A DNA stretch of 45,978 nt, filler included, from Jimgerdemannia flammicorona (lineage: Eukaryota): the NCBI GenBank assembly GCA_003990765.1. It is 2 parts of 2 records of this genome, joined end to end, with 100 filler letters (N's around TTAATTAATTAA, not from the genome) between each part and the next. Parts side by side here need not be neighbours in the genome. Positions count along the whole stretch, not along the records: positions 23,041 to 45,978 come from RBNJ01001181.1; 1 more part is not named here. One strand, given 5' to 3'. Positions 1 to 45,978 of the stretch are shown here, piece by piece. The position numbers and the translations under genes were made by a program. The notes below the pieces were generated by a model. The model was not told the DNA's origin. It worked only from the letters and a program-made list of their open reading frames with translations, and did no database searches. Position 1 is the first letter of the stretch. Every line of letters begins with the position of its first letter.

Positions 1-2260
1 TTTTTAACAGACTTAATGTCCCACAGATTTTTATTGGAAGGGAACCTAGACTATATAGGCCAAAACCCTCCCCCACCACTCATCAAGCACTGCCCCCCCA
101 TTAATCTAGGCTAGCTATTGTCCAGTAGCTCAACCATGCCAGGTACAGCAGGACCTATGGTAGCCTGCACTTCATTCTGCATACCATGCTCTTCCTACTA
201 CCAGGGGAAACCCAACCATATGCCAATGACCAAAAGTATATGCCTGAGAACCCAATGTATGTACAAGGCCATGCTTGAGCTAAATAGAATAGCCCCTGCT
301 ATCTCAAAGAGAATGACAGATAAAGAAAAACCCTCATCAAAGTACAATATGGTGGGTAGGGCCTAGTTCTCTCAGTTGAGGTGAGTAAAGGACTTATATG
401 TAAGGCAGGAGGAGACCCCCAATACCCCACTACTCAAGCCTGCAGGCCTCAATCACATTGCCATATCAGCTCTCAGTTCCAGTTGAGTGCAGCCAAGACA
501 CCTGAAATGGGTAGCCTTGGGCCCCCTAACCCCCCCTGATGACCGGGGCCTAACCTGCCAACTTGCTAAAAGAAGCCAAGAGTGTCACCTACTACCTAAC
601 TATGCTGCACTAATCAAAAGGCCCCACTGAAGCAGCACCTGCCCCAGCCCTGATGACTGCCCCAGCCTGGTACCCTACTGGTTCACCATTATCGCCCATC
701 CTCCTATCTGTGACAGCCATCTTCCCTCCCATCCTGACAATACCTGAAAAGCAGTCACCTATACCAGAACTATGCTTGCCGGGAAGCTCACCAATGTTAG
801 AGGGCCCCACCATAGATACTGTAAGAGGGTTACTTTTTAGGGTAACCATTACGTAATTCTGGAAAGGTTTTCTGGATATTCTGGATGTTCTGGAAGACTG
901 TTTTCTTATGGTCAAGATCAATTTCATATGGAGTATGTCCTCTATGCTTATTGATTTCAAGATCGGGTTGACATCTCAACCAAAGTCCTTTTTTTGGACT
1001 AGTTCTAGATGTTCAGGATTTTCTATATTTCAGGAAGTTCAAGAAACTAAGACCAGCTTAGTTGAATTGGCATATCGCTGCAGGCAATACCCAATTAGAA
1101 AATTCGTGACGGAGTTGATGTCCTTCATGGCATATCCAACTTGGGGCATTTGCAGGATGTGATCATTGGGGTGTGGGAAGGTTCTGTCTGTGGTTTCAAT
1201 GTACTCGAGGTACTTGTGGTTGAGTTCTTGTATCATGTCATTGATTTGGCTGTAGGACAGGGTAGCAACCATTTCACTGGTAGTAACTCGAAGGCAGGGA
1301 ATAAAGGTGCTGTACTTATAGAAGAGTTCTCGATGTTTGCGGGCGATGAGCTTCTGGTGTTGAGACATCTGGGTAATGTCCATATCGTGATGGTGTTCAA
1401 CCATGTCTTCCAGGAGGCAGCCGATCTGGTAGTAGCTTGAGATTTGTCCGATTTGGTGGGCCTTGCTAAGCATATTCAGAGCATTCCATCAGGCTTCTAT
1501 GAAGTAGAGGGGTGCTAGGCTATGGATATTCATGAGGGGCAGAGGGAGTATAGCTCAGTTGACAATGGCATTCCAAATGTCAGCATGGATGCAGTTGTAG
1601 ATCTCAGTGGTCATGTTTGTGTGTTTGGAAGTTATGGTTGTTGTTTGTTTTGGTTCTCTGATTCAATGCGTCTCGGTGCTCGGTATATATGTATTTGGTC
1701 CTGATTAGTAAGATCTCATTTGTGTAAATCTTGTGTTCTGTGACTTCATATTGACTCAGCTTGCATACTGTGACTTCAGTTTGACTCAGCTTCGTGATCA
1801 AGCAGGTGATTTCCAGATTTATTCAGAGGTCACATGTGATTTCAGTGGCTTGTTCAGAGGGTGACATATAATTTCGGTGGCTTGGAGGTTGTGCGCTTAC
1901 AGATACCAAGAACCTGCAGGTAACCTATATTAAGCACTTGATGCCCAAGGTCAGCTGACTCCCTATGTAGCCTGATATACACTGAGATACTACCTTGTTG
2001 GCAACAGCAAAAGGAAGAAGGCACCACACCAAAACAGATATACTCTAGATGCAGCTGAAGGCACCAGAAACTGTAAAAAAGTGGAGAAGACACTGATCTG
2101 ATACTGATAAAGGGGCAACTCATCACCATTGCCTCTCTCCCTCTGCCCTGCAATAGGTATAGCAAACCATCCTAAGGTAGAGGGGGTAATAATTGTGGAA
2201 AGTGGACTCAGAAGGTTGCCTACCAAACCATTGTGACTGGTAAGGTAGCAGAGAAAGGAG
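1..2260 (-). mobile_element. Non-autonomous poly(A)-tailed retroelement (~1.2 kb, SINE-like), copy 1, interrupted by a solo LTR at 820-1901
   Basis: 1-819 plus 1902-2260 is the reverse complement of 28112-29700 minus its MITE. The window begins in its poly(T). It has the same 5' end (CTC(C)TTTCTCTGCTACC) as copy 2 and abuts gypsy-B gag sequence at 2261. Confidence 0.85.
820..1901 (-). mobile_element. Solo LTR of Ty3/gypsy family A with a ~1 kb internal deletion
   Basis: Termini TGTAAG...CTTACA; perfect 5-bp TSD GATAC (815-819 and 1902-1906). Colinear with 41910-43973 except for a deletion at ~1117. The empty site is visible in copy 2 near 28465. Confidence 0.95.
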
Positions 2261-6900: not shown

Positions 6901-7224
6901 GAACTCATTGACTGCCTGTGAGATTCTCCTCTTGGATAGTAGATGACCTACTGTACTGATCAGGCATATTATATATCAGGGCTCTCTAAGGGATATAGCA
7001 TCAGAAATAAGAGATATAGGAAAACCCTATCAATTTTGCAACCAATGAGGTTCAAACCAGTTCTCATCTGATCAAGATGATACTTTGGCCCTCACCTTAT
7101 ATAAGGATGGCCAATTCTTATCAATGAGTTGATACATTTAATTTGAAGTTTCTTTTAGCCTTATTGTTTGTTATATATAACTTTAAGAATTCAACAAGAA
7201 TATTGATTCTTAAGGAAGGGGAGA

Positions 7225-11300: not shown

Positions 11301-11359
<59 letters not shown>
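7629..11359 (+). mobile_element. L1-like LINE copy 1 (ORF2 APE-RT, 3' UTR, poly(A)); 5' part displaced by gypsy B
   Basis: APE motifs LFLLQDV, GGDFN, RIDWIL, SDH; RT motifs GVPQGDLLSP and AFADD. Poly(A) at ~11304-11359. Colinear with 15796-19490. Confidence 0.92.
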
Positions 11360-11362
<3 letters not shown>

Positions 11363-12955
11363 GTATGTAAAGAGATATTTATAGAGAAGTATTCAGGAGT
11401 TGTGTTTGAATTATTCTTGCCTGAGTTTCTGAGGTCTAGGAGAGGGAGTATTTGTGCACTATCTGGACTATACTAAATATAGATATAGCACTTAGTACCT
11501 TATTAAGTTGAAATGCAGTTATATAGTATAAGTGTGAACTGATATATCAAGAGATCATCTGACTGCTGAGTTAGTATACAGTTATATCATATAAGGCTAA
11601 TTTAACTATACTAATAACTGCTAAGCTATCTATAGATTTAGATATTATCTGGGTAGTCTTTAATGACATTATCATCAATAATATTATCTCTGATGAAGTA
11701 GTTATCTAAGAAGAGTAATTCTTAGATTACTTCTCCCTATTCACTTAGATAATAATATATTGGGATCATATTATCATCTTACAGGATAGTATTATCTGTT
11801 TCATATATTAGATAAGATATCAGTAAGTGAAGAAGGGATACATTATCTTCACTTTCATCAGATTTTCTATCTGTATATCTTCTATAGATAATGATACTAT
11901 GAGTTGTAGGGTTGTAGTATAGTGGCAGCTGTGACTCATTTCATTTATACTCAGAAGGTGAGGTTGTTGGTTCAATCTCAAGAGTTATCTGGAGATATAG
12001 GTTATATTCTCTAGTCTTTTCATTGTAGTTGAAGTAGTTGAGTATAAATATAGATTGATACTTATACTAATGGTCATTATCTCAATAGATCTCATAGGTG
12101 GTTATAAACTGTTGTAAGTTCATTAGCAGAATTGGCAGAGTAATCAGAGCTGATAGGGATCCTTGGCTGAAGGTCATATCAGTATCAGAGAGATCATTAT
12201 CTTCTACTTCATTATTATTGAACTGGATTATATTATAAATATTCTTCATGATATATCTAACTTAGGGCATTTGTAGGATGTGGTCATCAGAGTGTGGGAA
12301 GGTTCTGTCTGTAGTTTGAATATACTTAATATACTTATGATTATCTTATACTATATTATTGATTTGGCCATAGGACAGAGTGGTAACTATTTTAGTAGCA
12401 GTAACTCAGAGGTAGGAAATAAAGGTGCTGTACTCATAAAAGGGTTCTTGGTGTTTATAAGTAATGAGTTTCTAGTATTGAGACATCTGAGTAATGTCTA
12501 TGTCATAGTGATATTCAACCATATCTTCCAGGAGGTAACCAATCTGGTAGTAGCTTGAGTTTTGTCCAATTCAGTGGACTTTACTGAGTATATTCAGGGT
12601 ATTCCATCAGGCTTTTGCAAAGTAGAGAGGTGCTAGGCTATGGATATTTATAAGGGACAGGAGAGGTGTGACTCAGTTGAATGATATTCCAAATGTCAGC
12701 ATAGATGTAGTTGTAGATCTCAGTAGTCATAGTTGTATTTATGTTTAAAAGTTATAGTTATTTATTTGATTTATTATAGTTCTTCATTTCGATATATCTG
12801 AGTACTTAGTATATATATATTTGGTCCTGATTAATAAGGTTACATTTGTGTAAATCTTGTATTCTATGACTTCAAGTTAATTTAGCTTTATGATATTGCA
12901 TATTTATTCTGAGAGTGATATGTAATTTTGGTAGCTTGGAGGTTATGTGCTTACA
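11360..12955 (-). mobile_element. Old, heavily mutated family A LTR (partial; interrupted by LINE copy 1)
   Basis: Colinear with ~42300-43973 and ends ...GTGCTTACA at 12955. Confidence 0.9.
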
Positions 12956-22940: not shown

Positions 22941-23040
22941 NNNNNNNNNNNNNNNNNNNNNNNNNNNNNNNNNNNNNNNNNNNNTTAATTAATTAANNNN
23001 NNNNNNNNNNNNNNNNNNNNNNNNNNNNNNNNNNNNNNNN
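22941..23040. other. Assembly gap with artificial TTAATTAATTAA all-frame-stop linker
   Basis: N-runs flank TTAATTAATTAA (22985-22996). Confidence 0.95.
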
Positions 23041-23053
23041 AAAAAAAAAAAAA

Positions 23054-23911
23054 GAACCAAGATCTGTTATCCTTGTACAACCACTACCACCAAGAATAGT
23101 CTTAATCTTACAAGAGATAGAAGTGATGACACCTTGAAACTGATGATGTCAGAAGTCAGAAAACTGCTCAAACTTTGCCAGCAATGATGTCATCAATAGT
23201 GATGTCATCAAAGACTACCCAGACAGCATCTAAACCTATAAATAGCTTAGCAGTCATAGTATAGTTAGATTAGTCTTGTATGATGTAACTGTGAACTAAC
23301 TCAGCAGTCAGACGATCTCTTGACATGTCAGATCACACTTATATTACATAACTGCATTCCAACTCAGCAAGATACTTAGTGCTACATCCATATTTAGCAT
23401 AGTCCAGATAGCCCCTCACTAGTATAAATACCCCCTCCCCCAGACCTCAGAATCTCAGATCTAAACAATTCAAACACAACTCCTGAGCACTTCCCCACAA
23501 TATCCCTTCATATAACTACTCCTAATATAGCAATATCATAAATAGCGAATAAATCTATTTAATAACCCACAACCCACTCTTAAGTAAATCTGCTCTCCAT
23601 TAGGTCCCACTCCTAACTCTCTTACAAAATTTCCTAATTGGGTATTATCTGCAGCAATACACCAATTCAACTAAGCTGGTCTTAGTTTCTTGAACTTCCT
23701 GAAATATGAAAAATTCTGAGCATCCAGAACTAGTCTGAAAAAGAACTTTGGTTGAGATGTCAACCCAAACTTGAAATCAATAAGCATAGAGGATGTACTC
23801 CATACAAAATTGATCTTGACCATAAGAAAATGGTCTTCCAGAATATTCAGAACTTCCAGAAAACTCTTTCAGAACTATATAATGGTTACCCTAAAAAGCA
23901 ATCCTCTTATA
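23054..23911 (+). mobile_element. Family A LTR (variant) in opposite orientation, inserted into another family A LTR
   Basis: ~23195-23911 is the reverse complement of 41910-~42620 and ends CTCTTATA. The minus-strand LTR resumes at 23912. Confidence 0.85.
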
Positions 23912-24639
23912 GATGCAGTTGTAGATCTTGGTGGTCATATTTGTATATATTCAGAAGTTGTGGTTGTTGTTTGTTTTGGTTCTCTGTTTCGACATATCTT
24001 GGTACTCAGTATATATGTATTTAGTCCTGATTGATAAGATTCTGTTTGTGTAAATCTTGTATTCCATAACTTCATGTTGACTCAGCTTTGTACACTGTGA
24101 CTTTGGTTTGACTCAGCTTTGTAATCATGCAGGTGATTTCCAAATTTGTTCAGAGGTCATGTGTGATTTTGGTGGCTTGTTCAGAGGGTGACATGTGATT
24201 TCAGTGGCTTGGAGGTTGTGTGCTTACAACTCTCCCCTTCTTAGCTTTCGACATCCTCATCGGGGCCTTCTAATTTGTTCTGGTGTTGTTGTACCATTTG
24301 GATAGTTCTTATAGCTATATTTATTGAGGATTTGTTCAACTTTGTATTCTTCTTGGTCATTAATAATGACAGATACAGGTGGTTCTGTGGTTCAGTTCAG
24401 AAATGTGTCTCAGACCTTCTGGAGTAGTGGTCTGACACAGCTGTCAACTTTGGAAAAGTCTTCTTCAGAGTTCTCAGGTTCTCCTTTGGATGGGCAGATG
24501 GAGATAGCAAAGAGAGGGCATTTCTTGGCTAATTTCTTGAGTTGTAGCTTGTTGATGTGAGTGATCTTTGGTCCAGAGTCACTAGAGTTGAGTGGGTCCT
24601 TTTTATCTTGCAGTTTGAAGTTGTGGTGTCCTTTCTTGA

Positions 24640-26654: not shown

Positions 26655-28111
26655 ATTGTTCACTGGAGGTGGTTGGACTATTGGTAGTAGTATTACTGGT
26701 ACTACTTGAGGTACTGGTGCAGTGTGTGAGAGTGTTCTTTGGGTCTGTGTAAGTTGCTAAAGTAATAGTTGTGGGTCTGGAGTGAGAGCTTGATAGATAG
26801 CTATTTGTTGCTATATAGGTGTATTCTGTCCTGATGGAGGTGCATCTCCTTTAGTAGTATATCTGGGATTGAATTCACTGAGATACTCCTCCTCCTCTTC
26901 AGTTTGGTCCATGTATAATTGGGTTTGTTCAGCATCAAAGTAGATAGAATTAGTTATATATCTGATTTCAGATGGACTTAATTCAAAGTCAAGTTCAGGT
27001 TCAGTGTTGGTTTCAGATTTAGGTAGGGTAGTAGCAGGGCCTGCTTCTGATTCAGGGTCTAGTAGTTGATGAAGGGTTTCTCTTACTTCTTCTTTAAGAA
27101 TATGGCAGGCCTTGTTGTTCTGGAATCGGTAATATAGTGCGGTCTTGGTCCTGGTACAGTGAAAGTCAGTAGAGTTGAGCCACTTGGCTACAGAGACTTG
27201 GGCTTCGTGAGAAACTAAGGCTAGAAAGACTGCTGCTGGTTGTCCTAGGTTACTCAGATTTGTAGAGCTGACAAAACTCTTATTGAGAAGAGTAAAGAAG
27301 GCTTCTATAAGACCTTCTTCATCTTGACTTGCTGGGTATAGTGCAAGGAGTTCGGTGAATAGAATTTCACCTATTTGCTGATTTAATCGGAGTACTTCTT
27401 TCTTTGAATGAAGTTTGTCCCACTTGTTGTAGATGTAGAGGTCAAATTGTCCTTATATGTCAGGTTCAATTCTCTCCAGATTGTCAGATAGTTCAGGATA
27501 AATTCCAGTTCAGAGGTTGGGCTTTATATCAATTTGTAGAAATTCATAGAAGGGTTTGTAGCAGAGTGAGGAAGCATCTTGAAGCAGAATTGGATTATAA
27601 ACTGCTACTATCAAGTTATAAGAGAGTTACTTTTTAGAGTAACCATTACATAGTTCTGGAAGGGTTTTCTGAAAGTTCTGGATATTCTGGAAGACCATTT
27701 TCTTATGGTCAAGATCAATTTCATATGGAGTACATCCTTTATGCTTATTGATTTCAAGATCAGGTTGATGTCTCAACCAAAGTCCTTTTTTGGACTAGTT
27801 CTAGATGTTCAGGATTTTCTGTATTTCAGGAAGTTCAAGAAACTAAGACTAGCTTAGTTGAATTGGCATATTGCTGCAGACAATACCCAATTAGGAAATT
27901 TCGTGATGGGGTTAGGAGTAGGACCTAATGGGGAGCAGATTTACTTAAGTGGTTTATGGGTTATTAAATAGGTTTATTTGCTATTTATGATATTGCTATA
28001 TTAGGAATAGTTATATAAAGGGATATTGTAGAAGTGCTCAAGAGTTGTGTTCGGATTGTTCAAGTCTTCAAGTCTGAGATTCTGAGGTCTGGGAGAGGGG
28101 GTATTTATACT

Positions 28112-29672
28112 CTCTTTCTCTGCTACCTTACTGGTCACAAGATTTGGTAGGTGACCTTCTGAGTCCCCTTTCCCCTATTATTACCCTCTCTACCTCAGGT
28201 TGGTTTGCTGTACCTGCAGGGATATGGTGAGAGAAGGGCAATGGTGATGAGTTGCCTCTTTATCAGTGTCAGATCAGTACTTCCTCTACTTTTTTGTAGA
28301 TTCTAGTGCCTTCAGCTATATCTGGGGTATACCTGTTTTAGTATGGCACCTTCTTTCTTTTGCCATTGCCAATGAGGAGTTGTCTCGGTATATCTCAGGC
28401 TATGTAAGGAGTTAGCTGACCTTGGGCATCAAGTGCTCAGTATAGATTATCTATAGGTCTTTGGTGTCTGTAGTAGGGCCCTCTGGCTTTGGCAAGCTTC
28501 CCAGCAAGCACAGTTCTGGTATAGGTGACTGCTTTTCAGGTGTTATTGGGATGGGAGGGGAGATGGCTATTACAGATAGGTGGAAGGGCAATAACAGTAA
28601 ACCAATAGGGTACCAGACTGGGGGCAGTCATTGAGGCTGGGGCAGGTACTGCTTCAGTGGGGCCTTTTGATTGGTGCAGTGCGGTTAGGTGGTAGGTGTC
28701 ACTCTCGGCTTCTTTTGGCAGTCAGCAGGGTTGGGCCCCAGTTGTCAGGGGGGGTCAGGGGACCTGAGGCTACCTATTTCAGATGTCTTGGCTGTACTCA
28801 ACTGGAACTGGAAGCTGACATGGCAACATGATCGAGGCCTGCAGGCTTGAGTAGTGGGGTATTGGGGGTAGTGCTCCCAATGAATTGAATCAAGGGTTCA
28901 ATTTGATTTGATTCAAATCAAATCAAAGGTCCAATTCGATTCAAAGTTTGATTTGAACCTTAATTTTCAAAATGTAATAACTCGACGAAAACTCATCCAA
29001 ATTTAACGTATTTTAGCTTGTTAGATTCACCGTATTAATGTGATTCTAACAAGCTAAAGTACGTTAGATTTGGATGAGTTTACGCTGAGTTATTGCATTT
29101 TGAAAATTAGGGTTCAAATCAGAACCTCAATTCAATTTGACTTTTGATTCGATTTGAATTAATTTGAATTGAAAAATCCCCAATTCGATTTGACTTATTT
29201 AACCCTCAATTCGATTCAATTCGAATTGATTGATTCGAATTGATTCGACTCATTTGGGAGCACTAATTGGGAGCTTCCTCTCACCTCATGTGTAAGTCCT
29301 TTACTCACCTTGACTGGGAGCCTATCCACTATGTTGTACTTTGATGAGGGTTTTTCTTTGCCTGTCATCCTCTTTGGGGTGGCAGGGGCTATTCTATTTG
29401 GCTCAGACATAGCCTTATATATACATTGAGTTCTCAGGTGTATGCTTTTGGTCATTGGCATATGGTTGGGTTTCCCCTGGTGGTAGGAAGAGTATGGTGT
29501 GTAGAATGAGGTGCGGGCCAACATAGGCCCTGCTGCACCTGGTATGGTTGAGCTGCTGGACAATAGCTAGTCTAGGTTAATGAGGGGGCAGTGCTTGGTA
29601 GGTGGTGGGGGAGGGTTTTGGCCTATATAGTCTAGATTTCCTTCCAATAAAATTCTACAGGACATGAGTCTA

Positions 29673-29700
<28 letters not shown>
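28112..29700 (+). mobile_element. Non-autonomous poly(A) retroelement copy 2, inserted at the LTR TATA box
   Basis: 17-bp TSD GAGGGGGTATTTATACT (28095-28111) / GAGAGGGTATTTATACT (29701-29717); AATAAA at ~29646; poly(A) ~29675-29700. Confidence 0.9.
28869..29265. mobile_element. hAT-type MITE 1 (397 bp)
   Basis: TIR TAGTGCTCCCAA; 8-bp TSD ATTGGGGG / ATTGGGAG; TTCGAT-like subterminal repeats. The empty site is in copy 1 at ~416-423. Confidence 0.9.
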
Positions 29701-29704
<4 letters not shown>

Positions 29705-29904
29705 GGGTATTTATACTAGTGAGGGGCTATCTGGGCTATACTAGATATGGATGTAGCACTAAGTGCCTTGCTGAGTCAGAATGCAGTCATATAGTACAAG
29801 TATGATCTGACATATCAAGAGATCGTCTGACTGCTGAGTCAGTTCACAGTCATATCATATAAGACTAATCTAACTATACTATGACTGCTAAGCTATTTAT
29901 AGGT

Positions 29905-31002
29905 TTAGATGCTGTCTGGGTAGTCTTTGATGACATCACTATCAATTGCATTATCTCTGATGAAGTAGTCATCTAGGAAGAGTGGTTCACAGATTACTTC
30001 TCCTTGTTTACTAAGATAATAATACATTGGAACTTTGTCTCTGTCCCATTAGATGGCATCGTCAGTTTCATATGCTGGGTAAGATGTTGGCAGGTGAAGG
30101 AGGGGTGCATCATCTTCGCTTTCATCAGATTTGCTGTTTGTATACCTTCTGTAGATTATAGTACTATAAGTCGCAGGGTTGTAGTAAGCTGGTAGCTGTG
30201 GTTCATATCATTCGTACTCAGGTAGTGGAGTTGTTGGTTCGATCTCGAGAGTTGTTTGAAGGTACAGATTGTGTTCTCTGGTCTCTTCATTGTAGTTGAA
30301 GTAATTAGGGGTGAATGTGGGTTGGTATTTATGCTAATGGTCATTGTTCCAATAGATCTCATAGGTAGTTATAAACTATTGTAAGTTCATCGGCAAGATT
30401 GGTGGTGTGATCAGGGTTGGCAGGGATCCTTGGCTTGAGGTCATGTTGGCATCAGAGGGATCATTGTCTTCTGCTTCATCTTCATCAAATCAGATTATGT
30501 TATAAACATCCTTCATAGTGTATCTGACTTGAGGCATTTGCAGAATATGGTCATCAGAATGTAGGAAGGTTCTGTCTGTGGTTTCAACATATTCGAGGTA
30601 CTTGTGGTTGAGTTCTTGGATCATGTCATCGATTTGGCTATAGGACAGAGTAGTAACCATTTTGCTGGTAGTAACTCAGAGGTGGGAAATAAAGGTGCTG
30701 TACTCGTAGAAGAGTTCTCGATGTTTGCAGGCGATGAGCTTCTAATGTTGAGATATCTGGGTAATGTCCATATCATAGTGGTGTTTGACCATATCTTCTA
30801 GGAGACAGCCAATCTGGTAGTAGCTTGAGATTTATCTGATTCAGTGGATCTTATTAAGCATGTTCAGGGCATTCTATTAGGCTTTCACGAAGTAGAGGGG
30901 TACTAGGCTATGGATATTCATGAGGGGCAGAGGGAGTGTGGCTCAGTTGACAATTGCATTCCAAATGTCAGTATGGATGCAGTTATAGATCTCAGTAGTC
31001 AT
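29905..31002 (-). pseudogene. Second full-length copy of the family A U3 ORF
   Basis: ATG at 31002 to TAA at 29905; same 1098-nt span as 43685-42588. Confidence 0.7.
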
Positions 31003-32150
31003 ATTTGTATATGTTTAGAAGTTGTAGTTATTATTTGTTTTGGTTCTCTGTTTTGATGTGTCTTGGTACTTGATATATATGTATTTTGTTCTGATTGGTA
31101 AGATTCTGTTTGTGTGAATCTTATATTCTGTGACTTTGTGTTGACTCAGCTTTGTGTACTGTGACTTTAGTTTAACTTAGCTTCATGATCATGCAGGTGA
31201 TTTCCAAATTTGTTCAGAGGTTGCATGTGATTTCAGTGGCTTGTTCAGAGGGTGACATGTGATTTCAGTGGCTTAGAGGTTGTGTGCTTACAATACTTAT
31301 AATTAATTTTATAATAAAAAATTACACTTTAATATCACAATAATAATATATATATTACTAAATATAATATTATTAGATTTATATTACCAGTAATATTATA
31401 TACTAGAAAACTCAATAATATTAATAAGATCATAGCAATTCTATACTGATTTCAGTCTATAATAGTATAAGAATACTTATAAATTTTAGACTTAAGTTAG
31501 AATTTTACAAAACTGAAACATAGGTCAAGCAGTTCTTAAGTTCTTAAAATACTTATTAATAAAAAAGGTCTCAGATATAAGATATAGTGATCTGAGTATA
31601 GTATTTTCTTTATTAGATTTGTGAGAGACTTAGCAATCTCAGATAAGTTTCTGATAAAGCAGTAGTAATAACTGGGCTAAGCCAAGAAAAGATCTGAATT
31701 CTATAAGATTTGCTAGTTCTGACTATTTTTAAAATACCTTTATCTTGTAGTAAAGACAATATAGCTAAGATATTTGACTTATTCCTTCTTGAGCTTTATA
31801 TATTACTTTGACCGGTCTTGGCATCTAGACGAGCCCTGGAGCAAGAGCTAAACCAAGCTCCCTGTTAAGGAAAGAGAAATGTGTGATAGTAATAACAAAA
31901 ACCCCGCTTGTTATACACCTTAAACGAATATCCCATCCCTTATTCCGATTGATATGTAAGCCCTCGTGGTTAATAGTAGTCGGATTCGTAAGTAAAATTT
32001 TGTTCTCTTGGTCAACCATTATTTGCATTAGACATAATATAAAATGCGCAGCAGCTATAAACAGTGGCGATATATACGTTGAGAACGAGAAATGGCAGAC
32101 CAGCGAGGATATATAAACATGCATGTCACCCACTCTATCGCAACCCCAAC

Positions 32151-35100
32151 TCAAAATGGACCAGGCCCACCCGGCGGCACCCTTATAATGGCCCACCTCT
32201 CCTCGTACCCTGCCCACGCTGTCCACCCAAGCTCCGTGACGATCTCAAGCCTCAGCACCCACACCTTCTTGAGGTCCTTGCCGTTCTCGCCGGTGACCCC
32301 CGAGTCGGCCAGGAACTTGTTCAATGCCTTGAGTGCATTCCCCGCGCGGCCGGCACGGCGCTCGCGGTTCACGTACAAGAACAGGGTGCGCAGATCGGTC
32401 GCCGAGGAGGCCGCGGTGTCGAGCCACTGCTGCATGGCCGCGTAAGTGTCGTCGAATTCCTGCCGCGTAGCGGAGGAAAGCGACCAGAGCGCGATAGACT
32501 TGCTTCGCAGGGCGTACACGACCAGCTGTTTCTTCTTGTCATTGTCTTTCTTGATCTGCTTCTTCGTCTTGCCGGAGTCTACAGAGGCGCTCGACGAGAT
32601 TGGGGGGGCACCGTCGATCTGCTTGATGCCGTAAAATGTCGCAAGGTCCTTGAGGTTGATGGCGGCGAGGATGCGATCGGCCACGATGACGACTTCTTCG
32701 GCCTTCTCGGCCGCGAGCGGGGTCAAGCCGTCGGCACCATTCATGTGGATTTCGAGCTGCGCCTCGAGCACAGGGAGTGTGGACGTGTACGAAAGTTCAT
32801 CGAGCGCAGTGAGAAGCTTGGCGCGTGCGGGGGAGCTGGCGGGGAGCTTCTTGAGGTGAGAGAGCTGGATATCGCGAATGGCGTCGGCGAGCTTCTGCGC
32901 GAGCTCTTCTTCCTTCTCGGCCTCACTCTTGGTAGCACTTGCCCCGTTGACATCGCCGTCGGACGGGCTGATCTGCTTGGGTTTGACGGGCTCTGGGGGG
33001 ACAACATGCAGAGCCCTGTATTGGCCGCCGTCGACCCTTTTGGAGTTGATGAAGGTCAGGTTGCCGACGAGCAGGTCGCCGGCCTTGGCATCCTTAGGGT
33101 AGCTGGAGTAGTCATTGGGCGCGGCGAAGAAGACGGGCTTACGCTGGCCCTTGTCTAGGGAGGTCTTACCGAAGGTCGACTTCTTGCTGTTGTAAACGTC
33201 ACCGATGGTCTTGTGGGTATCAAAGGAGATCGACTTGGAGAGCGAGAAATCGAGCTGGCAGATAATATCGCGCATGCGATCGAGCACTTCCTCGCTGTCC
33301 GACGTGACTTGCCAACGGACTGTGTAGTCACCCTTGGTGTCGATTTTAACATTCTTGAGGTAGATATCCAAGTTAGCGATGACCCTGTTGTTGGCATCAT
33401 AAACTGTTTGGTATAACAATGTCGAGCAATTGGGGTATGATCGCAGGTGAGCATCCAGTAAAATAATCTCAAAACGTCAACAGTAGTAACGTTATTTCGA
33501 AATGACATGACCTACCCACGCCAAGCACGCCCGCCACAAAGTGATCGTATAATTGATTCTGCAGCGCTGGAATTCCGGGGGTGACGGTAACCGGATCCGA
33601 AACACGGAACGGGTATGTCAAATGGAGGCCATAGATCTGGCGGCCATCGGGAAGAACATCGCGATGAGCGCTGAGAGGACGAAGCGTGACCTCCGTGGGG
33701 CGGATAAACTTGCGCAGCGTGTCTGAAATGGAACGACCCAGATTGGTTTCAGTCACAGGAATGAGTGTGACTTGCCCTATAAATAACATACGACAAAATC
33801 CATTATAACCTACCGAATGACACCCTCGGGTTCACCTCATCCTCCCTCCGAATCGATGCCACAATATCCAGCCTAGAAAGTGTGCCAAGGTAAATTGCAC
33901 CCCCAGCATCGGCAACGCTACCGGCAAGTTGGATACCATGGAAGGACACCTCGAGATCGACTACATGGTTACCAAGGCTGGACCAAAACTGCGCCAAGGC
34001 AAACTGGTAAAAAATGGTGTGTAACGTCAATCAGTATAATGTTTCTGGAAGTATATGGCGTGTATCCTTCGCGTGTAATGGCAATCCTGCACAACTCCTC
34101 CAACCCAATCCAAATAGCTCAACCAACCCACCTCGATAGTCAGACCGCTTTTCACAGCGAGCCTGCGCGTTTCGATCTGTTCCTCCGCGTGAGCCTCACC
34201 GTAGGATCCCTTCCCGACCGTGAAGGCATATTCGATCTTGCCCTTGTGGCTCTTTAGCGGCACGAGCTGAAGGACGTGAAGGTAGAAGCCAGCGGGCACG
34301 ATCGCTTGCCCAGGCAACGACCTCACTGTGACGTCTACATAACACATCCACGAAATCGTGCACGTCAGCAAAACTAAGGTTACCGTGCACCAATTAAACA
34401 GACTCGAATATCTACATGTACCTACCGACAAACGTAGCGCCATCCGGCACCCTCACGAACCTCCGGTTGATCGTCCCAGGACCGTATTGCAACGACGAGA
34501 ACCGCAGGGTAGGATTCGTCGTAGTGTCAAGGGGTTTGGCAACGAAAACCGGAACGGAGAACAAGGGCCCGCGCGCAGGGCACGTCGAGTCGTAGCCCAG
34601 GATTTCGGCGGAGTAGAACTGGCCGGCAGTGAGTTGCGTTGGATCGACCTTGATGCCGAAGGAACGGCCTGCGATTTGTTAGAAGGTATTTTTCACCTTG
34701 AGAAAGCTTCACTTTATGGCCTTGCCGTTCGTAACAGACTTCCAGAAGATACCCTTTAACCCCTCCCTCCCACTTCTCAACTAATCCACTCACCTCCATT
34801 GTGCAGATACAAAAAATCCGGCGCCCTAACCCAGGTCTCAGTGGACACGAGCGTGATCCGACTCTCGAACGCGACCTTCTCCTCGTTGCGATCCCCCGTC
34901 GTGGGCTCTAGATCGCGCATGAAGGTCGATTCGACAAAGGCATTGAGATGGTGCGTGCGGTTGCACTCGTCGTGTCCGCGGAGGTACACACCGCGAGCGT
35001 TATCGCGGTCGAGGATGGAGATCTGGGGAAAAGAGATCAAAGATGTTAAAGCCGGTTGTATATGGCTGCTAGCTATGACATTGCGATTTCCCATCACAGT

Positions 35101-37952
35101 CATTCCCTAGCCCCCATCTTCCACGCCAGCTTACCTGGAACAAGATATCCATCTCCGGCCTCTCATAATACGTCTGCAAATAATCCCACGCCCTGTCCAC
35201 CTGAATGAACCCGACCCCCAACGGGTCGTCGACCGACTTCGCCGTATTCACCACTGCCGTCTTAATCCTATACGGCGCGAACCCCTGCTTCTGGGCCCTC
35301 AATCCGGACACCAGCAACGCGACACACCCGCACGCATTGGGACTGGACATGCTCGTCCCGTTCTTAAGCATAAACTTGGCCAGCCCGTACAAGGGCACGC
35401 TCGTGATGGCAGACCCGGGCGCAAATATATCCACGCCGGGGTATCCGTCCACAGTGGGCCCGCGCGAGGACCAAGTGAAGGGGTTCTCGGGCACGGCATC
35501 GAGCAGAGCGTACTCGGCTTGCATCTGCGAGTGCTTGACGTAAGCGCCTACCGTGATTAGGCCGGCCCACATGCCGGCGGGGGCGCCAATGGACGAGAGC
35601 GTTGGGCCGTCGTTACTGGCCGACGTCACGAACACGCAGCCGTGCTTGCCTACCGCCTCGCGTGCGAGTTGCTCTATGAAGTAGCCTGAGGTTGGGTTGC
35701 CCGACGCCTCGCCGTAGGACATGTTGGCCAAATCGCACCTGTGCGCCGCGAGGGCGCTCGCCGCGCGGGTGAGGCTTATGCCGGTTTCCATGGAGACTGT
35801 GGATGGTTGGTTGAGTGACGCACAATGAGACCATAGGTTGAAAAGTGACATTCATTGATGGACATTTCTGTCATCCTCATGAAACTATATACAGTGTCCA
35901 TACACTACACGAGCTTACTTACCAAGGCGGTTATCACCAATCTTCAACGACACAAGCTGTGCACCGGGCGCAATCTAAACCGCCAATCGTGACCAAGGAA
36001 AATCGAACTTTTAGTCATCGTCCCCTTTATGCTATCATTTCTTTTCCAATGCACCAATTACCCACGGCCTCATTGAACACCCGACACACTTACGCCGTTC
36101 AGCATAGGTTCGTCGGGGAAATTGGCGGCGGTGATGCCAGACACGTGCGTTCCGTGGCAATTGGCCATCGTGACGATACTGGAGAGCAGAGAGATTGCAG
36201 ATCAAAGAAAGGAATCAAAAAGTATTATTATCGTAGAAAAACAATACGAATGACTGCGTCCCAAAAGTATGGCGATTCAGCCTCTCAAAACTTTCATTTT
36301 GGCACAGCTTACCTGAGCAAGTCGCCGTCATCATAAATATTCACAGAGAAATCCAGCAGATCCTCCTTACCGAATCGGTGGTACTTGAGCTCCGTACGGT
36401 AATCCGTGAGAGTGGGTTGCTCTGAAAAAGATCGTTTCAAGTAAAAAGAACGTGGATTGAGCCATAATATTTCACCGTCAAACGAGCATTCCTTCGAAAA
36501 TAAAAAAGAAATCTCTTCTCCCCTTGCCCATCCATCTACCCACCCCTAAGATCCCCCGTCTCCTCGACATCGACGACGGCCCTCCAGTGCTGTCCGTCGT
36601 GGAAGACGACGCAGTCGAAGATCATACCCGGGTCGTCGTAACTCTTCATCCAATCCTTGAGCACGCCGACGCGGGCCTCGAGGTCCGCGCGCACCTGCAG
36701 CTCCTCCGCGGGGGCCGTGCTCGACGAGGCGTGCGCCCGATCCCACGCCGCCAGCGCAGAGGCCGCCGAGGTATAATGCCGGTGATGTTCTAGCTCGAAC
36801 TTCTCACGGCGTTCCTGGGTGGGTGAATCGGTTGATGGGCAGGATATTAAGCGAAAATCCGTAATATTTTTACTTTGTTCATCCTTACTCATTGGCAACA
36901 TGACTACCTAACTCATAACTTCCATTTGCGAAGGTCTTCCTTCTCCCCATCACACTCCCGAACCTTTCCTCCACATCCCCTCTCCCGTTCCCTACTCCAC
37001 CCACCTGTTTCAACCTCGCGACCAACCTCTCCGGGAACAGGTGGTATGCGGGCTTCACACCGAGCCTATACTCGCCCGATGGGTTTGCCCAGCTAGCGTT
37101 TACGATTAGCGTGCGACCGGACAGGCCCTGCAGCGTGAGCAGGTCCGCCTCGTCGCCCACGTCCTTGACGACGGGCTTGGCGATCGTCGTCGTCACCACG
37201 TCGCCTGAAATCGTTTAGGTGTCAGTACTGACATCCGAGAGGAATGTGGAAGCTCGGGTATAGCCTCGTGAGTAAATCCAAATCCTCGTTACGAGTGAAA
37301 GGGATACAAACCGGATCCAGTGCAGTCTACGATGTCAATGATCTTAGGCTTGCCGTCTGTGGTGACCTGATGCGAAATGTACAAAGAGAAGTCAGCCAAT
37401 GTTTGGTTACCCGCGAAGATATTCGCGGGAGGCGCTCCACCGTATCCCTATCCTGGTGCATAACAGAATATCCACGCGTCCTGCGGCCTCATTTGAGTAT
37501 ACATAGTGAGATATCCCTCGCGTGCGACTGTGCCACTTTGAATAATGCTCCAACTGTCTGATGCTCCGCCCTTGAACCGAATGCTGTAACTCGTGTGTCA
37601 TGGAGATAGAACATACCTGCAAACCAGCTGCGCCAGGGTCAATACCTGCAATACCATAAGAGTCATAAGAGTGAAAGTTGAGTTTGGTAGCATCAACGCA
37701 CTTTGGCCAAGCTCCTCCTGAGCCTCTCAACCCAAACCACATAATTACATTCAACTCTCCCCCAACTAACACGCCTCCTCCACACCTCATCAACTCACCC
37801 GTATCCAAAATAGCAATCACGGTCCCCCGCCCGTCAAACTCTGGGTGCTTCTTGAGGAACGCGGCAGCCTCGGTATCTTCCTTCGGGAGGAGCCCACTGG
37901 CGGGAAACTCTGGGATCGGTCTGGAGGGTCTGGTAGACTTAATGTTCGTCAT
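32151..37952 (-). CDS. TPP2: Tripeptidyl-peptidase II (peptidase S8), 15 exons, 1313 aa. Exons: 37952-37799, 37645-37617, 37366-37312, 37204-37005, 36814-36544, 36421-36313, 36178-36094, 35974-35923, 35796-35135, 35022-34794, 34668-34426, 34334-34132, 34003-33814, 33722-33516, 33403-32151
   Basis: FPASGLLPKEDT...FDGRGTVIAILDTGIDPGA; catalytic D (LDTG), H (HGTHV), S (GTSMSSP); FTWSSRGP. All introns are GT-AG, phases are compatible and exons sum to 3942 nt. Confidence 0.96.
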
Positions 37953-38086
37953 GATTCTCGTTTACCGTCGTATGAAGTTGTTCTCTGGCGAATTTTGTAC
38001 CCCCGGGTCACGCGTCACGACCTCCTCGTGACTTACCGCGCGAGCTTTAGCCGAGGTTATTGGACTGACTTGTTGTTATTTATTAG

Positions 38087-40299: not shown

Positions 40300-41909
40300 C
40301 TAGTATCTGGACAGGAAGAGAAGTAATTACATCAAGACTTGCCAACTACCCAGTATTAGAAGGATCTCAACCAGAACCAGAAGGCAGTATAGCCCGAAAT
40401 CTCTAACTAGATCAATCAGACAACATAGGTGGCCCTGTTGGAAATTTTGAAGAACTTGTACAAGAACTAGAAGATCTTATTACACAAGCCCAAGATCTTA
40501 CAGCCAGACACTCTATACCAGTTCCATCAATTTCATCAATAGAACCTTTATCACAACCCTTTGCAGAATTGGAAGTAGCTCTTACAAGAATACCTAGGCT
40601 CATTCCACTTCATTCAATGTCCAGGACACCATTCTCAGGATACCCAAGCACCTCTATCTCCAGTGACAGTTCAGAAAGTGAATCAGAATCAGAATCTGAA
40701 CCAGAATCAGAATTAGAAGAAAGTGATAATAAAATGACCACCTCATTGCCAATCTTTACAGGATACCCAGAGGAAGACCCCAGAGAATTCCTTGACAGAA
40801 TTGAAGGAATTGTAGCCCTGAGGAATCTCTCAGATAAAAAAAAAATTGCCATCTATAAGACTCAGCTCAGAGAACTAGCCAGAGGAATTTTCTACCAAAC
40901 AGCAGATAACCCTGATTCAGAATTGGCAAGACAGATATAAGCAGCAATATCTTATAAGCTAGAATATGTAGCTATGGTCTACTGACTTATCGAAAAGTAT
41001 GCAAGAAATAAAACCCACTACAATGCTTAAGAATCTATTATAGAGATGAAGATGAATCTTGAAGAATCTCCCAGAGTCTTTTTATAAGAATCCTGAAGAG
41101 AATACATACTGCTAGGTTCAATGCCACCAACCAGGACATCATAGGTCCAATGACCTTCATAAATGAAATTCCTCTGAACATCACCCAGCATATCCACACC
41201 CTAGACATCATAAGGTCTGAAGAGCAAGTTGATACAGTCCAAGAATTCTTTGATGTCAGACAAGGAACTACCTGGAGTGATCATAACAAGAAAGAAGACA
41301 AAGAAGATATCCTGGTCAAAGCCCTATAAGGACTCCTTTAAGGATAAGAAAGATCTGAGGAAAGAAGGCCAGCAAAAGAAGGAAAGAAGAACAGAAGTAA
41401 AATCTAAGACCTTAGCTCCAAGTTGGATCAATTGGTTGGACAGATTGAAAAACTCACCATATGTGAAAATCAGAGCTATCAAGACAACAGAGGATATCCA
41501 CCACAGAGGAGCTAAGGTTATCCACCAAGAGATAAAAGGAACTACCAGTAAGAAGAAAGAAGATACTCTGTCTGAGACAGAGTTCAAGTCTAATGCTTCC
41601 ACTATAGACAACTTAGACACTACACTACTAAATGTGATAACAAAAGAAGTGACCAAAGGGACTCAAAATCATCAAACTGAAAGAATGACACTCAGTACAG
41701 AAAGACTGAAGCTCATCCTGTTGAAGATTTTGAGAAAGTAAGCAATAGTGCAGACTACAGTGATCTAGACTTATACCCTACCAAGGTTACTAAGTCTATC
41801 TAACAGAGAAAAGAAAGAGACCTATAGGAAGGCCATCCAGAAATATCAGCAGAAGAATCATCCAAGAAGAAGATAAAGAACATGAAGAGGAGTAGATTGA
41901 AATACCTTC
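40300..41909 (+). pseudogene. gag: gag of family D, interrupted by the family A insertion at 41910
   Basis: LPIFTGYPEEDPREFLDRIE; decayed knuckle CFHYRQLRHYTTKC at ~41594-41635. Confidence 0.8.
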
Positions 41910-42587
41910 TGTAAGAGAGTTACTTTTTAGGGTGACCATTACATAGTTCTGGAAGAGTTTTCTGGAAGTTCTGGATATTCTGGAAGACTGTTTTCTTATA
42001 GTCAGGATCAATTTCATATGGAGTACATCCTCTATGCTTATTGATTTCAAGATTGGGTTGACGTCTCAACCAAAGTCCTTTTTTGGACTAGTTCTGGATG
42101 TTCAGGATTTTCCGTATTTCAGGAAGTTTAAGAAACTAAGACCAGCTTAGTTGAATTGGCGTATCACTGCAGACAATACCCAATTAGGAAATTTCGTGAT
42201 AGGGTTAGGAGTAGGACCTAACAGGGAGTGGATTTACTTAAGAGTGGTTTGTGGGTTATGGAATAGGTTTATTTGCTATTCATGATATTGTTATACTAGG
42301 AGTAGTTGTGTGAAGGGATATTGTGGGGAAGTGCTCAGGAGTTGTGTTCAGATTGTTCAAGTCTGAGATTCTGAGGTCTGGGGGAGGGGGTATTTATACT
42401 AGTGAGGGGCTATCTGGACTAGGCTAGATATGGATGTAGCACTAAGTGCTTTGCTGAGTCGGAATGCAGTCACGTAGTATAAGTGTGATCTGACATGTCA
42501 AGAGATTGTCTGACTGCTGAGTCAGTTCACAGTCACGTCATACAAGGCTAATCTAACTATACTATGACTGCTAGGCTATTTATAGGT

Positions 42588-43685
42588 TTAGGCGCTGTCT
42601 GGGTAGTCCTTGATGACATCACCATCGATTGCATCATCTCTGATGAAGTAGTTGTCTAGGAATAATGGTTCGCAGATTACTTCTCCTTATTAGCTGAGGT
42701 AGTAATACATTGAGACTTCATCTCCGTCCCACAGGATAGCATCGTCTGTTTCGTATGCTGGATAAGGTGTTGGTGGGCGAAGAATGGGTGTACTGTCTTT
42801 GCTTTCATCAGATTCGCTGTCTGTGTACCTTCTATAGGTTACAGCACTATGAGTTATGGGGTTATAGTATGCTGGCAGCTGTGGTTCATGTCACTCGTAC
42901 TCAGGTGGTGGAGTGGTTGGTTCGATCTCGAGAGTTGTCTGAAGGTACAGGTTGTGTTCTCCAGTCTCTTCATTATAATTAAAGTAATCGGGGGTGAACA
43001 CGGGTTGGTATTTGTGCCAGTGGTCATTGTCCCAATAAGTCTTGTATGCAGTTATGAACTGTTGTAAGTTCATCGGCAAGGTTGGCAGAGTGATCAGGGT
43101 TGGCAGAGATCCTTGGCTAGAGATCATTTCGGCATCAGAGGGATCATTGTCTTCTGCTTCATCTTCGTCGAAGTGGATTATATCGTAGACATCCTTCATG
43201 GTATATCTGACTTGAGGCATTTGCAGGATGTGGTCATCAGGGTGCGGGAAGGTTCTGTCTATGGTTTCGACATACTCGAGGTACTTGTGGTTGAGTTCTT
43301 GTATCATGTCATCGATTTGGCCGTAGGACAGGGTAGCAACCATTTCGCTGGTAGTAACTCGGAGGCAGGGAATAAAGGTATTGTACTCATAGAAGAGTTC
43401 TTGATGTTTGCAGGCGATGAGCTTCTGGTGTTGAGACATCTGAGTAATGTCTGTATCATGGTGGTGTTCGACCATGTCTTCCAGGAGGCAGCCGATCTGG
43501 TAGTAGCTTGAGATTTGTCCGATTCAGTGGGCCTCGCTAAGCATGTTCAGGGCATTCCATCGGGCTTCTACGAAGTAGAGGGGTGCCAGGCTATGGATAT
43601 TCATGAGGGGCAGAGGGGGTGTGGCTCGGTTGACAATGGCATTCCAAATGTCAGCACAGATGCGGTTGTAGATCTCAGTGGTCAT
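42588..43685 (-). pseudogene. LTR(U3)-encoded orphan ORF: 264 aa to the TGA at 42891, or 365 aa if that TGA is a decayed CGA
   Basis: MTTEIYNRICADIWNAIVNRATPPLPLMNIHSLAPLYFVEARWNALNMLSEAH(R)IGQISSYYQIGCLLEDMVEH... reads without frameshift. Confidence 0.75.
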
Positions 43686-43754
43686 GTTTGTGTGTTTGGA
43701 AGTTGTAGTTGTTGTTTGTTTTGGTTCTCTGATTCGACGCGTCTTGGTGCTCAG

Positions 43755-43955
43755 TATATATGCATTTGGTCCTGATTGGTAAGGTTCCGTTTGTGTAGAT
43801 CTTGTGTTCTGTGACTTCGTATTGACTCAGCTTTATGCACTGTGACTTCGGTTTGACTCAGCTTCGTGATCAAGCAGATGATTTCCAGATTTGTTCGGAG
43901 GTCACGTGTGATTTTGGTGGCTTATTCAGAGGGTGACGTGTAATTTCAGTGGCTT
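43755..43955 (-). promoter_or_regulatory. Putative promoter/enhancer array at the start of U3
   Basis: Two ~33-bp repeats with GTCACGTG/GTGACGTG, two ~30-bp repeats with TGACTCA, then CCAAT (~43779) and TATATA (~43760) about 75 nt before the ATG. Confidence 0.55.
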
Positions 43956-44399
43956 GGAGGTTGTGCGCTTACAACTCTCCCCTTCTTAGCTTTTGACGTC
44001 CTCATCGGGGTCTTCTAATTTGTTCTAGTGTTGTTACACCATTTGGGAGGTCAAAAGTCTGGTAAGGTCCATTTTTTTCAGAAAGTGGCATGCTCGTAGT
44101 AAAGTTGCCTAACGCGTTGGATTCACATGTTAAAGGGTCATGTGTTCAATGCCGTGCACCGGAAGTGATTCTGATGTCATTTATTGCTGGAGAATTTCCT
44201 CTAAGAAATCTTCTTAAATGTCTATGCCTTGTTTCCCACCAGTGGTACAGGGAGAATAGGCTTGCTTTCAGTTTTGCTATTTTTCCAGAGGGTTGGTATT
44301 CTTATCTTGTTTTGCTGAGTTCTTGATTTGGTTCGTGATAGTTATAATGTTCAGGAGGGTAATATATAGTATGTATGGATAGGTGCAGAGTATTTGGTT

Positions 44400-45978
44400 C
44401 TAGTTGTTCAAGGAATCATATTCCTGAACTAGGTCGGTAGCATTCTGGAGATTGGTCTTAGGTTCCCAGGTTGCATTGTGGATCAGGTAACCTTTCCATT
44501 TGACAAGGTACTCAGGATGGTTCTTATTACCACGTTTGTTGAGGATTTGTTCAACTTCGTATTCTTCTTGGTGATTAATGATGACAGGTGTAGGTGGTTT
44601 GGTGGTTCGATTTGGAAATAGCTCGTTATCATTGTCATTGTATCGCTTGAGATGTTGAACATTAAAGACTGGGTGAATCTTAATGGTGTCTGGTAGCGCC
44701 AGTTTGTAGGAGGTTGGAGAGACTTGTGCAATGACTTCAAATGGTCCAATGAACTTGCTGTTCAGCTTTGTAGATGGTCTGTGCTTGAGGTTGTCAACTC
44801 GGTATCCTCTGATGTCTAGTAGAACTTTTTCTCCAATGTCAAAGGTTTCTTCTCGGCGGTGTTGGTTAATATACTGTGATTGTTGTTCTTGAGCTCGTGA
44901 TAAATTCTCAATTGTGATCTGGCTTAGATTGCACATTCGGAGTAGAAATTCTTCAATGGCTTCGACTGTGGAGGGTTCTTCAGTGGTTCAGATAAGTCTC
45001 AAAGGGGTGTTTGGGTTTTGTCCAGTATTAGCGAAGAATGGAGTCATTCCAAGAGAGGCTTGCTTGCTGTTGTTGTAGGCAAACTCAACTGCAGTGAGGT
45101 GTTCATGCCAATCATCTTGTCTGTAAGAGACATAGTTTCTTAGCATTTGTTCCAGAGTTCAGTTCATTCTTTCTGTTTGGCCGTCGGTTTCAGAGTAAAA
45201 GGCTGTGAATAGTGCAAGTTTTGTTCCAAGGTGTGCATGGAGGGCTTTCCAAAAGTGGCTGGTGAATTTCGGATCTCGGTCACTAACAATGATCTTGGGA
45301 AGACCATGATAGTGGAAGATGTTGTCAAACAAGAGTGTGGCTATGTCTGGTGCTGTTGCAGTAGTGGTAGTAGGCACAAAGTGAGCTTGTTTGCTGAGAT
45401 AGTCCACAAAGACAACAATTGCATCTTTTCCGTTCTTGGTTCGGGGTAGTTGTACAATGAAGTCCATAGAGATTTGTTCCCAATTTGTGGATGGTACTGG
45501 GATAGGGTGAAGTAAGCTGGGTTTTGCTAATGTTGAGGACTTGTTTTGTTAGTAGGCATCACAGGAAGTGATGTAGGTCTTAAGCTGATCTGCCATGTGG
45601 GGCCAATAGAAGTTTCGGGAGATAACTTCGTAACATTTATCAAATCCTAAATGTCTAGCTGTAGGAGCATCATGACATTCGAATAGGATAGTCCTTCGGA
45701 GGTCTCGGTTGTTTGGGACATACAGTCTGTCCTTGTAGTAGATAGCATTGTCCTTGAGTTGGTATTGATTGTACCGGGTATGCTTGTCAGCATCATCATT
45801 GTTCAGGATTTCTCGGAGTGCTTGAGCTTCTTTATCATCAACACATGCTGCAATGATTTGTTTCATGATAGTGTTGGTAACCAACGTCAGAGTTTGGATA
45901 ACCTCTTCGATTGGTGGTCTGGAGATTGCATCGGCAACAATATTTTCCTTGCCAGGGCGGTACTGGATTTCATAGTCA
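44400..45978 (-). pseudogene. pol: 3' part of family A pol: integrase + chromodomain
   Basis: HDAPTARH, MDFIVQLP, VSDRDPKF, TDGQTERMN, GPF, YEVEQIL...YLVKWKGY...ATWEP; a few stops. Confidence 0.95.

Follow-up and report, generated by a model that had tools for sequence, protein, structure and literature searches.

A gene under purifying selection inside the long terminal repeat of a Jimgerdemannia flammicorona chromovirus

A stretch of 45,978 nucleotides from the genome of Jimgerdemannia flammicorona (assembly GCA_003990765.1), hereafter "the window", by which we mean the whole stretch of DNA analyzed, holds the remains of a chromodomain Ty3/gypsy retrotransposon (chromovirus) with a 2064-bp long terminal repeat (LTR). 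Inside this LTR lies an open reading frame (ORF) of 365 codons, in the sense direction of the element, that has been kept by purifying selection. We consider it probable, when all parts of the explanation are taken together, that this ORF is an orphan gene carried in the unique 3′ (U3) region of the LTR, an arrangement otherwise known mainly from complex retroviruses.

The LTR, its reading frame and their decay

The repeat, which we call family A, occupies positions 41910-43973 on the minus strand (2064 bp) and has TG..CA ends, starting with TGTAAGC at 43973 and ending with CTCTTACA at 41910. On the upstream side it is preceded by a polypurine tract and by the remains of pol (Table 1), where a Pfam search of 45977-44400 matched PF17921 (2.4e-16), PF00665 (7.9e-09), PF24626 (1e-18) and PF00385 (1.6e-16). 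Besides this copy, A1, the unit is repeated in five further full or partial copies within the window (A2 to A6). Comparison of the flanks placed A1 and A5 behind an identical polypurine tract, and the flanks of A2 and A4 were unrelated. Three nucleotides past the LTR end of A2 lies a TGG-type sequence, TGATAGTAGCAG (27613-27602), which we take to be a putative primer binding site (PBS). It is followed by gag-like ORFs, and a weak Pfam match to Retrotrans_gag (26010-26378) was found downstream of A2. Less decayed forms of the PBS-like sequence, TGGTAGCAG, occur in loose contig ends of two public runs, X2 and X12. The public runs were available as contigs only and comprise X1 (a soil metagenome), X2 (organism A), and X12 and X19, both labelled as RNA by guess. 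Since the unit stands 3′ of pol at A1 and 5′ of gag at A2, it is a true LTR of a chromodomain Ty3/gypsy element, as the original prediction had claimed from the sequence; the TG..CA ends, the polypurine tract, the PBS-like site and the integrase with a chromodomain all agree with that claim. No complete family-A element is present within the window.

In A1 the ORF runs from an ATG at 43685 to a TAA at 42590-42588, a span of 1098 nt. The other complete copy, in A2, has the identical 1098-nt span (31002-29905), so that the predicted agreement between the two was found by direct reading. A2 is a 5′ LTR, and there too the ORF is inside the LTR and not in the internal region. The frame had been described as free of frameshifts, which is true of three of the four copies (A1, A2 and A4) and fails for A3, where a 2-nt and a 3-nt deletion were found. 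Stops number four in A1 (codons 54, 265, 332 and 333), 12 in A2 and 12 in the part of A3 that could be read.

All copies in the window are dead through CpG-biased C>T/G>A decay, and so is the pol of the element. Transitions outnumber transversions about tenfold in the pairs of full copies (147:14, 227:23 and 213:23). A corrected consensus was made by resolving C/T and G/A polymorphisms across copies to C/G; of its 62 CpGs, 28 are mutated in A1, 49 in A2 and 62 in A3. Except for the stop at 265 and TAA-332 of A1, the stops derive from CGA, CAA, CAG, TGG or another sense codon of this consensus, four of them (A2-171, A2-318, A3-319 and A3-338) requiring more than one change or a transversion. 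The frame of the corrected ORF contains, besides its terminal stop, only TGA-265 and the ambiguous codon 332 as internal stops, the consensus being built from the window copies. The ORF was open in the ancestor of the copies. Across the ORF (42588-43685) and its copies, the share of mutated CpGs is 45%-100%, with CpA and CpC affected less, and the process looks like repeat-induced point mutation (RIP) or deamination of 5-methylcytosine in a Mucoromycota genome. We know of no description of classical RIP in Mucoromycota.

The correction removes stops by design, which leaves room for the explanation that there is no gene and that the open frame comes from base composition and the C>T correction. 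The antisense frame in the same register has just three stops after correction, and folding of the protein in silico is poor. However, the four other frames retain 12-22 stops each after the same correction, and the family-B LTR, a second repeat family of the window, gives no ORF longer than 121 aa when treated alike. A long ORF as a recurrent trait of the LTRs of this genome was considered and rejected, the family-B LTR having none. The pattern of transversions and an intact relative at 66% identity, both described below, also stand against a chance frame, and we regard that explanation as highly improbable.

Purifying selection and relatives of the protein

The decay of the copies is neutral, occurs after insertion and yields no transversions; therefore, selection was tested on transversions only. 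The 30 transversion columns of the ORF are distributed very unevenly over codon positions, with 20 at the third, six at the first and four at the second position (binomial P = 1.9e-4). Synonymous changes account for 16 of them and non-synonymous changes for 14, whereas only 334 of the 2178 possible transversions are synonymous (P = 1.5e-6, ratio ~0.16). Under a stricter null, in which each observed base change was kept and moved to a random site with the same base, 16 of 29 were synonymous against 4.96 expected, and none of 200,000 simulations reached 16. Third-position columns make up 11 of 15 before codon 265 and nine of 15 behind it. The LTR parts flanking the ORF have 10 and 12 transversion columns with no consistent phase. 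Internal gap runs in these flanking parts number 0-5 per copy (mostly 1-5), and the ORF has two indels, both in one of the four copies. Read in the antisense frame that shares this register, the changes would sit at position 1; it is therefore the sense frame on which selection acted. These results show a real gene, which purifying selection preserved during the divergence of the LTR copies or element lineages; the third-position bias and the synonymous excess uphold the earlier view of the ORF as an accessory gene.

Relatives were sought among 5.8 billion clusters of near and shorter lengths and 1.84 billion representatives of any length, a scope of ~15 billion proteins, and two real ones only came up, P0002 and P0003. 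P0002, a protein of 247 aa from ENA, lies on a 998-bp contig and shares 66% identity with codons 115-364. It has no stop and only two 2-aa gaps; codon 265 reads Gln and codons 332-333 read Glu-Asn, and the protein stops one residue beyond the match at query codon 364, as the window ORF does. P0003, of 128 aa and from JGI, lies on a 1180-bp contig, shares 91% identity with codons 1-128 and begins with the same Met. Arg stands in it at codon 54, and also where A1 has Cys (codons 10, 66, 92 and 107) and Gln (codon 95). Against the corrected consensus, identities are 167/246 for P0002 and 119/128 for P0003. When 249 codons were simulated neutrally at the divergence of P0002, they stayed free of stops with P of 0.011-0.043. 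In P0002, an intact relative therefore exists elsewhere. Conservation along P0002 is weakly heterogeneous (permutation p = 0.047). Scans of JGI metagenome contigs with the alignment and with P0003 gave 74 and 92 pattern stretches, none of which was confirmed by tblastn, and a tblastn search for paralogues in the window returned the known LTR copies only. Two further database proteins, P0004 and P0005, were rejected as spurious, being repeat proteins that align over just 38-40 residues.

The stops of the ORF can be read in the light of these relatives. Codon 54 is TGA in A1, A2 and A3 and CAA in A4, from which an ancestral CGA had been predicted; the Arg of P0003 at this codon supports that assignment. 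TGA-265 (42893-42891) was found, in line with the earlier statement that three copies share it, in all three copies that cover the codon. A change from CGA to TGA in all three is plausible, because codon 54 shows the same pattern with independent proof of Arg, and there may also have been a subfamily with a true TGA at 265. The length of the protein had been left at either 264 or 365 aa. The longer reading is favoured, because P0002 is open across codon 265 and has its end one residue beyond the point where the match stops, at query codon 364, and because the third-position bias continues behind codon 265. The three copies disagree at codon 332 (TAA, AAA and GAA), which leaves it ambiguous. 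At codon 333 the first base is C in most contigs of the DNA runs X1 (depth 306.4/330.7) and X2 (23.2/23.2), and the stop at 333 is therefore private to A1.

A captured gene may also be selected, and the ORF might have been captured from the host or a foreign source, or from some other mobile element, and ride in the LTR without use to the element, with selection having acted before capture or through a benefit to the host. The 5′ halves of LTRs can be modular: copy A6 lacks the body of the ORF, and within the crapaud family of Podospora it is the LTR 5′ half that distinguishes subfamilies, where the available part of the source reports no ORF (PMC10787394). However, the synonymous excess was measured between LTR copies, i.e. 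after the gene had entered the LTR. Moreover, the database search gave no homologue beyond the two LTR-type fragments, and the ORF resembles nothing else in the window. We therefore think a mere passenger quite unlikely.

The predicted protein has a helical N-terminal part of ~140 residues, an acidic linker and, as its C-terminal half, a very acidic region with many Tyr, Pro and other aromatic residues (pI ~4). P0002, which corresponds to the C-terminal part, has a pI of 4.05, 46 D+E against 10 K+R, 23 Tyr and 24 Pro, and it lacks Cys; where the window copies have Cys, the codon was originally one for Arg. Pfam gave no family at E<=0.01; its sole match at E<=5, RAMP (E 0.034), was below the family cut-off and was rejected. 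The best hit of a sequence-profile search of the PDB had an E of 0.26, and Foldseek found no PDB structure at E<=0.001, the best matches (E 0.6) being generic helical bundles. The ESM Atlas model of P0002 has a pLDDT of 0.39 with no usable feature match. In an Atlas search with P0003, recognition stayed below the bar, the matches sharing at most 155 of 256 features. A PPxY-type motif was also rejected, because the PPPEY of A1 is not retained in P0002 (PLSEY) or A2 (PLPEY). By the Pfam, PDB-profile and AlphaFold2 with Foldseek results, the protein is an orphan that belongs to no known family, consistent with the earlier failure to recognise one.

Position in the LTR, expression and possible role

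The main TATA box, GTATAAATACCCCC (42399-42386), follows 189 nt downstream of the ORF end. Between the LTR start and the ATG are 288 nt, which contain the direct-repeat pairs CACGTCACC/CACGTGACC and GCTGAGTCAA..GAAGTCACAG (twice), presumably motifs of the CACGTG and TGAGTCA types, followed by CCAAT (43779-43775) and TATATA (43760-43755). This placement, upstream of the main TATA and behind a repeat/CCAAT/TATA array of its own, had been described in the original prediction and is borne out by the sequence. From the motifs, the border between U3 and the repeat (R) region is inferred to lie ~30-60 nt beyond the main TATA, and the gene is likely placed in U3.

The array is also what the strongest competitor for this placement builds on, namely that the element's RNA starts behind the upstream TATATA (~43730), so that the ORF would be in an R region of ~1.4 kb, as first cistron and at both RNA ends, comparable to an "ORF0". 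The CCAAT/TATATA array stands 75-95 nt upstream of the ATG with no ATG in between, and the 5′ part before the ATG, with the array, is conserved across three to four copies. However, downstream of the ORF stands a canonical GTATAAATA box with AATAAA behind it, and their distance from the LTR end is the usual one. Copy A6, which has no ORF body, retains exactly this downstream module of TATA, R and unique 5′ (U5) region, suggesting that the core promoter is there. An R region of ~1.4 kb is also unusual among LTR elements. A leader gene of this kind is unlikely in our view, and the U3 placement is preferred.

Copy A6 bears on the structure of the LTR itself. Its junction is also present in a contig of run X12, so that A6 is a recurrent variant; the 155 nt before it (23041-23195) have no match elsewhere in the window. 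The ORF block thus acts like a module within the 5′ part of the LTR, present in some LTRs of this kind and absent from others. This limits the original prediction, in which every solo LTR would be an expression cassette: its real LTR, accessory gene, missing family and CGA-54 stand, and the cassette in every LTR does not.

With the gene in U3 upstream of the main TATA, it would be carried solely at the 3′ end of the genomic RNA. The most likely mRNA would be a separate transcript of ~1.4 kb that starts behind the repeat/CCAAT/TATATA array, ~75 nt before the ATG, and ends at the AATAAA of the LTR itself. Both LTRs of a full element, as well as ORF-bearing solo LTRs, could make this mRNA. The most likely role of the protein would be that of a trans-acting factor that raises the propagation of its own element. 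By analogy with the regulators of complex retroviruses that are encoded at the 3′ end or overlap U3, one may guess at an acidic, activator-like or adaptor protein that acts on LTR transcription or against host silencing, a speculation that we hold to be rather doubtful. It is possible, though less likely than not, that the element arrived independently at the layout of a complex retrovirus, with a trans-acting regulator under its own promoter in U3, two copies of it per integration, and ORF-bearing solo LTRs serving as cassettes that supply the family as a public good.

Several points weigh against a selected 365-codon gene in U3. All four window copies of the ORF are broken, and with TGA-265 in every covering copy the subfamily may have made only 264 aa. 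The evidence for selection comes from the LTR copies of the window. P0002 alone would be moderate evidence, less strong than the test on transversions, and it came to notice as a called ORF; it starts at Met-115 of the query on its short contig and may lack the N-terminal part, and with half of the divergence placed on its branch the neutral simulation gave P of 0.068-0.153. The U3 assignment draws on the TATA and AATAAA motifs only. None of the runs listed is recorded as RNA. In A6 there is an LTR variant that lacks the body of the ORF. AlphaFold2 folded the protein poorly, with a pLDDT of 32.1 for the whole protein (6 rows) and of 61.0, with helices, for residues 1-128 (4 rows), and no DNA-binding or other domain was recognisable by Pfam, PDB profile or Foldseek.

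At contig joints in runs X1, X2, X12 and X19, repeat-number and deletion variants were seen and no credible sense-strand intron. In X12 and X19 the summed contig depth over 41986-42414, a stretch past the main TATA, is in the hundreds to thousands, against 0-19 over the ORF body (42558-43558) and ~0 over the integrase; in X1 and X2 the difference between 41986-42414 and the rest is just 2-3-fold. Contig depth cannot rank the parts of a gene, and the contrast in X12 and X19 is not counted as evidence.

Among retroviruses, lentiviral nef and the bel/bet genes of foamy viruses reach into U3. Mouse mammary tumor virus (MMTV) contains an ORF, the superantigen gene sag, in the U3 of its 3′ LTR, according to the available part of the source (PMC2118998). 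Like sag, nef and bet, the window gene is a sense gene downstream of pol, upstream of the TATA box and doubled in the provirus, and it would likewise lie in U3; MMTV sag is the closest analogue in layout. Unlike these genes, it is found in a fungal host, in a chromodomain Ty3/gypsy element without env, and it has no relation to them in sequence or fold by Pfam, PDB profile and Foldseek. Another accessory gene in a fungal Ty3/gypsy element is brtn of the Boty-like elements of Botrytis cinerea, which is reportedly antisense, going by a title, whereas the window gene is sense and in the LTR. Plant LTR retrotransposons have accessory ORFs (aORFs) that are likewise additional to gag and pol, often lineage-specific and of no known function; the available text of a review puts them in the stretch from the 5′ LTR to gag or in that from pol to the 3′ LTR, and the phrases "in", "within" or "inside the LTR" do not occur (PMC7264820). 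The window gene differs in lying wholly inside the LTR (43685-42588 within 43973-41910). In some fungal chromoviruses, Novikova and co-workers marked an "add. ORF" without known function (PMC2864245); it is similar as an extra ORF, is compared here by its legend only, and its position could bear on the novelty of the window gene.

In the full-text literature searched, a scope outside which most subscription journals fall, no fungal or plant retrotransposon with a protein gene in its LTR was found. Within the literature covered, a protein gene kept by selection in an LTR would be the first found for fungal Ty3/gypsy elements. Some LTRs have a function in RNA form, such as those of the Cassandra terminal-repeat retrotransposons in miniature (TRIMs), which contain 5S RNA. 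According to the available parts of the sources, retrozymes have hammerhead ribozymes in their LTRs (PMC9695139), and foamy viruses encode miRNAs there (PMC7104284). In all three, as in the window element, the LTR holds a functional unit beyond promoter and terminator that is present twice per element; these units are RNAs, whereas here a protein gene of 365 codons is concerned.

Retrotransposon LTRs are seen as non-coding promoter and terminator modules, masked in annotation and rarely subjected to gene calling. If the explanation is right, the gene would be a non-retroviral counterpart to MMTV sag and to genes of the nef and bet type, and solo LTRs would be possible gene copies instead of relics. 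It would also offer an entry point to the expansion of retrotransposon families in the repeat-dominated genomes of Endogonales, of which Jimgerdemannia has a genome of ~240 Mbp with >77% repeats in the available part of the source (PMC10386755).

Other copies and surroundings in the window

The features of the family-A LTR and its copies are listed in Table 1.

Table 1. Coordinates of the family-A LTR, its ORF and related features in the window
Feature	Position	Strand	Basis or remark
LTR copy A1, 3′ LTR of the chromovirus; pol runs off the window end	41910..43973	-	termini in sequence
Accessory ORF, 365 codons + stop, sense; broken by TGA-54, TGA-265, TAA-332 and TAA-333	42588..43685	-	copy A1
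LTR 5′ part, candidate ORF promoter: paired direct repeats, CCAAT, TATATA, leader	43686..43973	-	sequence, inferred
Main TATA box GTATAAATACCCCC, downstream of the ORF	42386..42399	-	sequence motif
AATAAA, candidate polyadenylation signal in R	42268..42273	-	inferred from sequence
Polypurine tract AAAAGCTAAGAAGGGGAGAG, 1 base before the A1 LTR	43975..43994	-	same tract before copy A5
Integrase zinc finger, integrase core, Tf2-type SH3 and chromodomain in 3 broken ORFs of A1's element	44400..45977	-	Pfam
Copy A2, 5′ LTR split at 28112-29700 by a family-B solo LTR; ORF 29905-31002, 12 stops	27617..31292	-	
Copy A3, most decayed LTR fragment; ORF ~11638-12735, 2-nt + 3-nt deletions	11359..12892	-	
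Copy A4, LTR with ~1 kb internal deletion; ORF codons 1-~164/172 left (1614-1121/1099)	819..1901	-	
Copy A5: internal-region end, polypurine tract, first ~316 nt of the LTR (24229-23911) including ORF start	23911..24301	-	
Copy A6, LTR variant: last ~35-50 nt of the ORF + TATA, R and U5 only	23196..23913	+	

Nested and decayed retrotransposons form a patchwork in the window, with a single host gene among them. The family-B solo LTR that splits A2 (28112-29700, ~1.6 kb) is inverted and sits at the main TATA of that copy, equivalent to 42384-42400 in A1. A second family-B element at ~2257-7000 on the plus strand encodes protease, reverse transcriptase (RT), RNase H and integrase. Just before the end of A1 at 41910, two Lys/Glu-rich ORFs of 177 and 175 aa lie at 40407-41741 on the plus strand; they have no significant Pfam family and may be the gag of another, disrupted element.

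The host gene encodes tripeptidyl-peptidase II and lies at ~32.1-38 kb (32061-38000, minus strand), with Pfam matches to TPPII and Peptidase_S8. A stretch of 441 aa is 100% identical to a J. flammicorona protein and 65% identical to one of Endogone sp., which places the host among the Endogonales (Mucoromycota). The GC content of this gene is 51-58%, and it stands between AT-richer transposon remains (GC 26-47%).

Copy A3 sits between the two copies of a direct repeat (7632-11322 and 15799-19490), which is 3.7 kb long with 81.6% identity, a spacing of ~8.17 kb and a strongly positive GC skew. The ORFs of this repeat are of low complexity with no Pfam match, and it may represent an element with very long LTRs or a tandemly duplicated element. 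At 22941-23040, where the two parts of the window are joined, runs of N (22941-22984 and 22997-23040) surround TTAATTAATTAA, with poly-T and poly-A at the sides, and this joint resembles an artificial six-frame-stop linker.

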